A DNA stretch of 27,873 nucleotides from positions 1-27,873 of the forward strand of contig JBHLPR010000028.1 of the NCBI GenBank assembly GCA_048939245.1, read 5' to 3'. The position numbers were made by a program, and so were the translations under genes. Shown here one piece after another: positions 13,613 through 17,940 of the stretch; positions within the stretch are counted from its first letter, which is position 1, and every line of letters starts with the position of its first letter. Source of the DNA: Promethearchaeota archaeon. Lineage in GTDB: Archaea; Asgardarchaeota; Hermodarchaeia; Hermodarchaeales; Hermodarchaeaceae. The notes beneath the pieces are model-generated. The model saw nothing but the letters and a program-made list of their open reading frames with translations. It did not search any database and was not told the origin of the DNA.

Positions 13613-13813
13613 CTGACAAAGCTGTTAAAGAAATGTAGTCGGTGCAATACCTACACACTCAATCCAACACGATGTCCCAGTTGTGGTGGTCCTGTAATAA
13701 ATGCCCATCCTGCACGGTTTTCCATCGAGGACCGCTATGGCTCATATCGCCGAAAAATGAAGAAAGAACTACTTTCTTCAAATAATACGCCGGAAGACAC
13801 GGCATCTAGATAG
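13613..13813 (+). CDS. nop10: H/ACA RNP protein Nop10
   Basis: Not in ORF track. Translation (L)TKLLKKCSRCNTYTLNPTRCPSCGGPVINAHPARFSIEDRYGSYRRKMKK... has the Zn ribbon and HPARFS.ED.Y..YR signature, in its canonical position after aIF2alpha. The best available start is CTG, 6 nt after GAGGGG. Confidence 0.92.
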   Translation: MTKLLKKCSRCNTYTLNPTRCPSCGGPVINAHPARFSIEDRYGSYRRKMKKELLSSNNTPEDTASR

Positions 13814-17644: not shown

Positions 17645-17658
17645 GACAAAGTTAAAAC
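17645..17658 (+). promoter_or_regulatory. Putative BRE/TATA promoter of the tRNA-Leu gene
   Basis: GACAAAG-TTAAAA implies a start near 17680 and a leader of about 50 nt. Confidence 0.45.
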
Positions 17659-17740
17659 GCACAGAAGTTAATCATTGCACCAAACCATATGCGGGGGACC
17701 CTTCCGAAGGGGTCTTTGCCGCCATACCGGTGGCGGGGGT

Positions 17741-17761
17741 ATCTACGTGTGTAGACCCCAA
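17741..17761 (+). other. tRNA intron 1, position 8/9 (21 nt)
   Basis: Strict BHB: outer TGGC/GCCA, central GGGG/CCCC, bulges GT^A and AA^A, inner TCTAC/GTAGA. Confidence 0.88.
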
Positions 17762-17786
17762 AGCCAAGCCTGGTTAACGGCGCAGG

Positions 17787-17816
17787 AGTCACCCGTACCA
17801 ACGGGTTGACGGTGTC
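17787..17816 (+). other. tRNA intron 2, position 30/31 (30 nt)
   Basis: Relaxed BHB: central CGCA/GGTG (3 of 4 pairs), bulges GG^A and TC^A, strong inner hairpin GTCA-CCCGT/ACGGG-T-TGAC. A 31/32 register gives the same spliced product. Confidence 0.78.
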
Positions 17817-17823
17817 ACTCAAG

Positions 17824-17844
17824 ATTTAACCAGGTTTATGAGAC
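17824..17844 (+). other. tRNA intron 3, canonical position 37/38 (21 nt)
   Basis: Central CTCA/TGAG, bulges AG^A and AC^A; outer helix is the anticodon stem. Confidence 0.9.
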
Positions 17845-17875
17845 ATCCTGTCCGGCAGCGGTTCGAGGGTTCGAA

Positions 17876-17902
17876 AGATCCGCGCACTGCGAGCTCCGAA
17901 AT
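17876..17902 (+). other. tRNA intron 4, position 59/60 (27 nt)
   Basis: Outer GAGGG/CCCTC (T stem), central TTCG/CGAA, bulges AA^A and AT^T, inner GA/TC. Confidence 0.9.
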
Positions 17903-17930
17903 TCCCTCCCCCCGCACCACTTCAGCATCG

Positions 17931-17940
17931 TTACCTTTTT
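17931..17940 (+). terminator. Putative T-tract terminator after the tRNA
   Basis: TTACCTTTTT begins 12 nt after the CCA. Confidence 0.35.

Follow-up and report, generated by a model that had tools for sequence, protein, structure and literature searches.

A very probably functional tRNA-Leu(CAA) gene with four introns in a Hermodarchaeota archaeon, with a conserved leader copy of its acceptor strand and an intron complementary to its D-loop

Contig JBHLPR010000028.1 of a Promethearchaeota archaeon (assembly GCA_048939245.1) was analysed over a stretch of 27,873 nt (hereafter the window). On its forward strand, positions 17733-17919 carry a tRNA-Leu(CAA) gene that is divided into five exons (8, 25, 7, 31 and 17 nt) by four introns (21, 30, 21 and 27 nt) at sites 8/9, 30/31, 37/38 and 59/60, so that 99 of its 187 nt are intronic. 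Judged from the sequence and from comparison with relatives, we are confident that this is a real tRNA gene of a Hermodarchaeota (Asgard) archaeon and that it is very probably functional. The gene extends four-intron tRNA genes to Hermodarchaeota; since 2024, such a gene is neither a record nor a new phenomenon. What is new is a conserved copy of the acceptor strand in the leader, together with a conserved pairing between the third intron and the D-loop; the evidence that either has a function is suggestive.

Exon arrangement and spliced product

Splice sites were placed with the archaeal bulge-helix-bulge (BHB) motif, taken here as a 4-bp central helix, each strand of which is followed on its 3′ side by a 3-nt bulge that is cut between its second and third bases. 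All eight cuts placed in this way restore an intact 88-nt Leu(CAA), and the joined exons are called tRNA-Leu(caa) by ARAGORN. The 88-mer has a 7-bp acceptor stem, a 5-bp anticodon stem, a 5-bp T stem and a 3-bp D stem, the latter being usual for Leu, and it shows the characters of a class II tRNA-Leu (i.e. a 14-nt variable region with a 3-bp stem, a Leu anticodon, A73 and an encoded CCA). Aligned with uninterrupted Leu tRNA genes (GAG, CAG, TAA and TAG) of other Asgard genomes, it matches end to end without gaps at the junctions, at 81–87% identity. The layout given by the original prediction (i.e. coordinates, five exons, four inserts and their lengths, 99 intronic nucleotides out of 187, and an 88-nt product with CCA) proved exact when the sequence was re-read and the spliced form was submitted to ARAGORN. 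The parts of the gene are as follows, in window coordinates:

17733-17740, + strand: exon 1, tRNA positions 1-8
17741-17761, + strand: intron 1 (I1), 21 nt at 8/9, strict hBHBh′ motif
17762-17786, + strand: exon 2, positions 9-30 (D arm, 26, 27-30)
17787-17816, + strand: intron 2 (I2), 30 nt at 30/31 (the sequence would equally allow 31/32), relaxed BHB
17817-17823, + strand: exon 3, positions 31-37, with the anticodon CAA at 17820-17822
17824-17844, + strand: intron 3 (I3), 21 nt at the canonical site 37/38, BHB; bases 17826-17837 are complementary to the D-loop bases 17766-17777
17845-17875, + strand: exon 4, positions 38-59 (3′ strand of the anticodon stem, variable arm, 5′ strand of the T stem, T loop to A59)
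17876-17902, + strand: intron 4 (I4), 27 nt at 59/60, strict hBHBh′ motif
17903-17919, + strand: exon 5, positions 60-76 including the encoded CCA

Conservation and splice motifs

A neighbouring 1015-aa protein, which is 62–78% identical to proteins of Hermodarchaeota metagenome-assembled genomes (MAGs), places the contig in Hermodarchaeota and bears out the Asgard lineage that had been thought probable from the sequence. Beside the same neighbour gene, the same five-exon layout is found at 12 MAG loci (L001-L011 and L017) and, partially, at L013, with 86–90% identity, and further copies of the gene occur on nine metagenome contigs. The exons are invariant among these homologues, and the intron loops are variable. 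One relative, L012, has no I1: the intron is deleted exactly at its predicted boundaries, and the locus reads GCGGGGGTAGCC.

Three of the introns (I1, I3 and I4) fit the strict motif, with a 4-bp central helix between 3-nt bulges and both cuts after the second bulge base. In I1, the central helix pairs G3-G6 with CCCC, the inner helix has 5 bp, and the outer helix joins leader bases −2/−1 plus G1 and C2 with G10-A13; the central helix is paired in 100% of the alignment cells and the inner helix contains two compensatory pairs. The central helix of I3 pairs C32-A35 with UGAG, using the anticodon stem as the outer helix and a weak inner helix, and that of I4 pairs T54-G57 with CGAA, using the T stem as the outer helix. 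I2 has a central helix of C25-G, G26-U/C and C27-G plus an A28·G opposition, which is invariant in 14 homologues, and it is flanked by a 9-bp inner hairpin (two pairs with compensatory changes) and a 2-bp outer helix. The suggestion that each insert has a BHB of its own thus holds strictly for I1, I3 and I4, but is slightly generous for I2 because that motif is relaxed, with three of the four central pairs.

Across the 14-sequence alignment, 93% of the BHB cells are paired, compared with 32–47% when the partners are slid by one to three columns, and five pairs, located in the inner helices of I1, I2 and I4, have changed on both sides. The I1 and I2 motifs recruit the 5′ acceptor strand (G1-G6), both strands of the D stem (G10-A13 and G23-C25) and C27/A28. 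Since they use bases of the acceptor, D and anticodon stems, these two motifs compete with the cloverleaf and would form only while the cloverleaf is unfolded.

Recovery of the gene by a BHB-aware search

The raw locus gives no ARAGORN hit, with or without intron mode, and no Rfam hit, either in the window or in a whole-genome run of the tRNA model. Both tools are blind to the unspliced gene, as had been expected of standard scanners. We used a search that lists every BHB-compatible excision between a paired acceptor stem and NCCA and scores each solution by how well the cloverleaf pairs, by conserved bases and by the quality of the motifs. A gene can be found in this way only if its acceptor stem is free of interruptions and mismatches and if it has U8 and an encoded CCA. 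An earlier cloverleaf scorer ranked wrong solutions at the top, and the present ranking uses a variable-arm check and revised scoring. At the locus, the four-intron solution scores 48.5 and the runner-up 35.0, whereas the best solutions at ∼360 other seeds in the genome do not exceed 34. In the genome-wide run (1591 seeds of acceptor stem plus NCCA), 40 loci score at least 39.5 and all other seeds score 34 or less.

These 40 tRNA loci compare with ∼20 confident genes found by ARAGORN and the Rfam model; 20 tRNAs score above the Rfam cut-off, and all 20 encode CCA. This indicates that tRNAs are badly under-counted by simple scanners in intron-rich Asgard genomes. Two solutions of our scan are probably wrong, namely those at C78:4231-4385 (-) (‘Ile-AAT’ with three introns; a His gene) and C59:10764-10871 (-) (‘Ser-GGA’), the latter being read as Asp(GTC) by ARAGORN. 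We also tried and rejected a greedy or top-k peeling of introns on BHB score alone, which misses the four-intron solution and yields four other excision sets that are acceptable to ARAGORN.

A second Leu(CAA) gene was not found among the 40 tRNA loci, in which the Leu set consists of TAG, TAA, GAG and CAA. ARAGORN reports a ‘Leu(caa)’ at C62:10247-10354, but the gene there encodes a class I tRNA-Val(CAC), the 33-nt intron of which the program put in the wrong place. TTG makes up 12.5% of the Leu codons in open reading frames of at least 300 aa. The view that the gene is functional rather than decaying is therefore supported by the presence of the layout in 13 MAGs and on nine metagenome contigs, by the compensatory changes and by its being the only Leu-CAA gene found.

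Several observations weigh against a functional gene with this splicing pattern: (i) I2 departs from the strict motif, having an A·G opposition in its central helix and an outer helix of only 2 bp; (ii) the central helix of I3 is without its fourth pair in 4 of the 14 homologues; (iii) several excision sets are allowed by BHB geometry alone and are also accepted by ARAGORN, and the four-intron call rests on cloverleaf quality and comparative data because motif geometry is not decisive by itself; (iv) when the locus is folded by itself without constraints, its stability is unremarkable (z −1.8) and the four motifs do not all appear together; (v) the status as the only copy is limited by the 88% completeness of the MAG and by the scan, which misses interrupted or mismatched acceptor stems; and (vi) the essentiality of Leu(CAA) is not established, because tRNA-Leu(UAA) could in principle read UUG.

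Splicing enzymes and proposed maturation

The genome assembly (2.52 Mb in 122 contigs, an 88% complete MAG) encodes two EndA paralogues, each with PF01974 and PF02778. The 186-aa paralogue (L051:1474-2034(-)) aligns over its full length with the catalytic subunit of Aeropyrum pernix (3p1z_B, E 3e-44); the alignment covers the Tyr, His and Lys positions and sets a loop segment (GKPLGIRKPK...) opposite the A. pernix loop. In the 199-aa paralogue (L052:1201-1800(+)), Thr/Ala stands where EndA of M. jannaschii has its catalytic His in the pairwise alignment, and the protein matches the homotetramer subunit of M. jannaschii (E 1e-19) better than it matches the β subunit of A. pernix (E 6e-8). Judged from pairwise alignments only, the pair appears to match the (αβ)2 broad-specificity architecture of one catalytic and one structural subunit. 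This architecture is one of two EndA types able to cut non-canonical introns (PMC5829648). The broad-specificity endonuclease on which such a gene was expected to depend is therefore probably present, as one catalytic paralogue (triad and loop) and one structural paralogue. RtcB (563 bits) and an archaeal RNase P RNA are also encoded in the genome. The gene of the structural EndA paralogue (C59:11969-12229) lies within a tRNA-rich stretch (C59:10764-13896) with genes for Asp, Tyr, Arg-CCT, Thr, Met, Leu-TAA and Thr.

What the sequences establish directly is how the gene is built, that it is conserved, that it contains the motifs and that the genome encodes the enzymes; from this we infer that the gene is transcribed, that its introns are cut out and its exons joined, and in which order this happens, as follows. 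A TATA-type promoter would drive a precursor of ∼240 nt with a leader of ∼50 nt. Each of the four introns would pair with flanking exon sequence into a BHB, and a heterotetrameric EndA of (αβ)2 type would cut after the second base of both 3-nt bulges. RtcB would ligate the exons, and RNase P would take off the leader, presumably by cutting after position 17732. The expected end product is an 88-nt class II tRNA with a genome-encoded CCA end.

Conserved leader and intron 3 complementarities

The sequences flanking the gene contain the following features, in window coordinates:

17652-17657, + strand: TATA-like box TTAAAA, preceded by an A-rich stretch resembling a B recognition element, ∼39 nt upstream of the leader copy; probable promoter
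17690-17697, + strand: leader ‘decoy’, consisting of T and GCGGGGG, which repeats acceptor bases 1-7 exactly at a distance of 42 nt before the true 5′ end; invariant
17697-17714, + strand: leader hairpin 1 with a GACCC/GGGTC stem; conserved; in L008, L010 and L091 the stem has changed in a compensating manner
17718-17732, + strand: remaining 5′ leader, GCCGCC...GGTG, the last two bases of which belong to the outer helix of the I1 BHB (from sequence and alignment)
17936-17940, + strand: run of five T, 17 nt past the CCA, read from the sequence as a probable archaeal oligo-T terminator

A (G)TTTAAAA block lies at a fixed distance in 13 homologous loci, and both the promoter box and the oligo-T are kept in the homologues. 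In L012, the TATA-like box is ∼40 nt before the tRNA itself, which starts at the place that the copy occupies in the other loci.

The decoy can pair with the 3′ strand of the acceptor stem together with A73 (17909-17916). It is invariant in 13 homologues and in the eight metagenome contigs that cover the leader, which is otherwise variable. Of the 40 tRNA genes, only Leu(CAA) and Leu(TAA) are preceded by an exact copy of their acceptor strand; both have an 8/9 intron and both carry the copy at −42 (for Leu(TAA), around position 13622 of C59, with the real 5′ strand at 13664). These two 8/9 introns (C59:13664 for Leu(TAA)) are evidently homologues, both being built as ATCT-hairpin-AGACCCCA. Leu(TAG) and Leu(GAG) share the same acceptor stem and have neither an 8/9 intron nor an upstream copy, and L012 is without both I1 and the decoy.

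The second element is the I3:D-loop duplex, which comprises 12 bp in this genome (I3 bases 17826-17837 with D-loop bases 17766-17777). A 9-bp core remains paired in each of the 14 homologues; double changes that preserve pairing arose twice independently (C→A with G→T in L012/L017; T→C with A→G in L010 and L091), and several G·U pairs have improved to G-C. A 9-nt Watson–Crick match to the D-loop was reached by 1 of 200 shuffled introns. Leu(TAA) has no 37/38 intron and carries a 9-nt anti-D-loop segment in its leader instead. A separate case of intron complementarity was seen in tRNA-Met(CAT) (C59:13344-13491 (-)), where 9 nt (TCTGGCGCC) of a 45-nt canonical intron are perfectly complementary to mature positions 24-32 (0 of 200 shuffles), again a longer intron:exon duplex than the motif itself demands.

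A tentative explanation for these elements, which extends rather than replaces the pathway proposed above, is that the pre-tRNA-Leu of Hermodarchaeota carries RNA ‘splints’ that keep an open fold. The decoy on the 3′ acceptor strand and I3 on the D-loop would hold the acceptor and D stems open for the I1 and I2 motifs, and the canonical intron and the leader would be removed last, releasing the cloverleaf. When the putative whole precursor (17682-17922) is folded, the predicted minimum free energy structure (−98.7 kcal/mol) contains both splint helices (i.e. decoy:3′ strand and D-loop:I3) together with the central and inner helices of the I1 BHB, the I2 hairpin and the complete I4 motif. This is consistent with the idea, as are the invariance of the decoy inside a variable leader, the compensating changes in the adjacent hairpin, the restriction of the exact decoy to the two Leu genes with an 8/9 intron and its loss with I1 in L012, the conserved and doubly compensated I3:D-loop duplex that is rare on shuffling, and the replacement of the intronic anti-D-loop segment by one in the leader of Leu(TAA). 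However, the decoy helix has no covariation and cannot covary, because neither of its strands varies; only two to three compensatory events lie behind the I3:D-loop duplex; and an exact decoy is absent from the tRNA-His gene, which also has an 8/9 intron. Also, because the Leu(CAA) and Leu(TAA) loci are paralogous and L012 is a single lineage, the decoy and the 8/9 intron may occur together through shared descent; for example, a single insertion with a 7-nt duplication could account for this instead of a function. We thus regard the splints as possible but somewhat doubtful. If they exist, a tRNA leader and a tRNA intron would act as a cis-acting chaperone that imposes a processing order. The decoy and the I3:D-loop duplex may then explain how introns are cut whose motifs clash with the tRNA fold, and how non-canonical sites such as 8/9 get colonised.

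The upstream GCGGGGG could alternatively be the true exon 1, with the 42 nt up to the second copy spliced out as a fifth intron. The same mature sequence results from either copy, the 42 nt are bounded by direct repeats, and the upstream copy lies at the normal distance of a tRNA 5′ end from the TATA box, as in L012 and Leu(GAG). However, the registers checked by hand give the same G-rich or unpaired central strands, the best having three of four pairs and no flanking helix, the strict I1 BHB needs the downstream copy next to U8, and RNase P RNA is available for leader removal. We rejected the 42 nt as a BHB intron, none of the hand-checked registers giving a central helix and the layout of L012 being simple and ancestral-like, and consider a fifth intron very improbable. 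Least probable by our estimate is a decaying tRNA pseudogene, or a structured RNA other than tRNA, that has retained its inserts: the lack of a standard-scanner hit at the raw locus and an unremarkable fold z-score would fit it, but the five exons are invariant across lineages in which the neighbour protein is only 62–78% identical, the intron helices show compensatory changes, no other Leu(CAA) was found among the 40 loci, and the promoter box and oligo-T are conserved.

Relation to other multi-intron tRNA genes

We then compared the four-intron gene with published systems. Archaeal tRNA genes with up to three introns are mentioned in the tRNAscan-SE 2.0 paper (PMC8450103), and three was also the maximum given in the original prediction. 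Higher numbers have been documented since. Valentin-Alvarado et al. 2024 (PMC11291895) reported introns in 92–95% of the tRNA genes of complete Atabeyarchaeia and Freyarchaeia genomes, and their Supplementary Data 4 lists Arg-TCT and Ile2-CAT of Freyarchaeia with four introns both by tRNAscan-SE and by inspection, and Leu-GAG of Freyarchaeia and Trp-CCA of Atabeyarchaeia with three by tRNAscan-SE and four by inspection. According to the October 2026 preprint by Goswami et al. (10.64898/2026.10.13.758758), three focal families have 2.2 intervening sequences per gene, with up to five in one gene. The limit of three introns was hence out of date, and a fragmentation system of this kind can no longer be called possibly undescribed, as tRNA genes with four or more introns are documented in these two sources. 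Nor is the system extreme as had been supposed, since ∼44 introns in 40 genes, two of them with four introns, stand against 2.2 per gene in the published focal families. In brief, the interpretation held for a functional gene, an Asgard host, the EndA type and the blindness of scanners, but not for an intron record or for an undescribed and extreme system.

The gene falls within the published multi-intron class, being located in an Asgard genome and having four inserts of 21–30 nt (each at least 10 nt) relative to compact Leu genes. It resembles the published Asgard genes of PMC11291895 and 10.64898/2026.10.13.758758 in phylum, in its short BHB introns (∼20–30 nt) at both canonical and non-canonical sites, in having several introns per gene, in belonging to Leu, which is among the most interrupted, and in the typical presence of two EndA paralogues. 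It differs in lineage (Hermodarchaeota) and in the lower load of its genome (∼1.1 vs 2.2 introns per gene). Neither source names Hermodarchaeota in its main text, and the leader copy of the acceptor strand and the I3:D-loop duplex are not mentioned in the passages available from the two. A limited literature search by titles and abstracts found nothing relevant on leader or decoy elements in BHB splicing.

The multi-intron genes of Thermoproteales (Sugahara et al. 2008; PMC8450103) are similar in relying on a broad-specificity EndA of (αβ)2 type and in that closely spaced introns may need ordered removal, but their reported maximum is three introns per gene and they belong to Thermoproteota rather than Asgard archaea. 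The (αβ)2 EndA of Crenarchaeota (Aeropyrum pernix 3p1z/3ajv; Pyrobaculum 2zyz; PMC3241643, PMC5829648) likewise combines a catalytic paralogue with a structural paralogue that has no His, which is what the alignments suggest for the pair in this genome. In contrast to the crenarchaeal enzymes, the second paralogue here is more similar in sequence to the homotetramer subunit of M. jannaschii than to the β subunit of A. pernix.

Introns in the other tRNA genes of the genome

Of the 40 tRNA loci, 13 are uninterrupted; single introns occur in 17, two introns in 7, three in 1 and four in 2, giving ∼44 introns or ∼1.1 per gene; this count is a lower bound because the scan needs an intact acceptor stem. 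The second gene with four introns is a tRNA-Pro(CGG) at C81:28590-28788 (-), which spans 199 nt; its introns measure 30, 33, 30 and 29 nt, and one of its exons is 6 nt long. Its solution scores 45.5, and ARAGORN reads the spliced form as Pro(cgg).

Preferred sites of the introns are 8/9, the D-loop, the region around the anticodon and 59/60. The latter site, in the T loop, is a hot spot shared by at least nine genes (i.e. Gly-CCC, Gly-TCC, Met, Arg-CCT, Pro-CGG, Lys-CTT, Leu-CAA, Leu-TAG and probably Glu-CTC). The 59/60 introns follow TTCGAA or TTCAAA and end in ...CGAAAN or GGAAAN, which is a requirement of the motif, and they are otherwise dissimilar. In tRNA-Arg(TCT) (C9:5954-6030), position 33 is apparently C and not U, the anticodon loop reading CCTCTAA.

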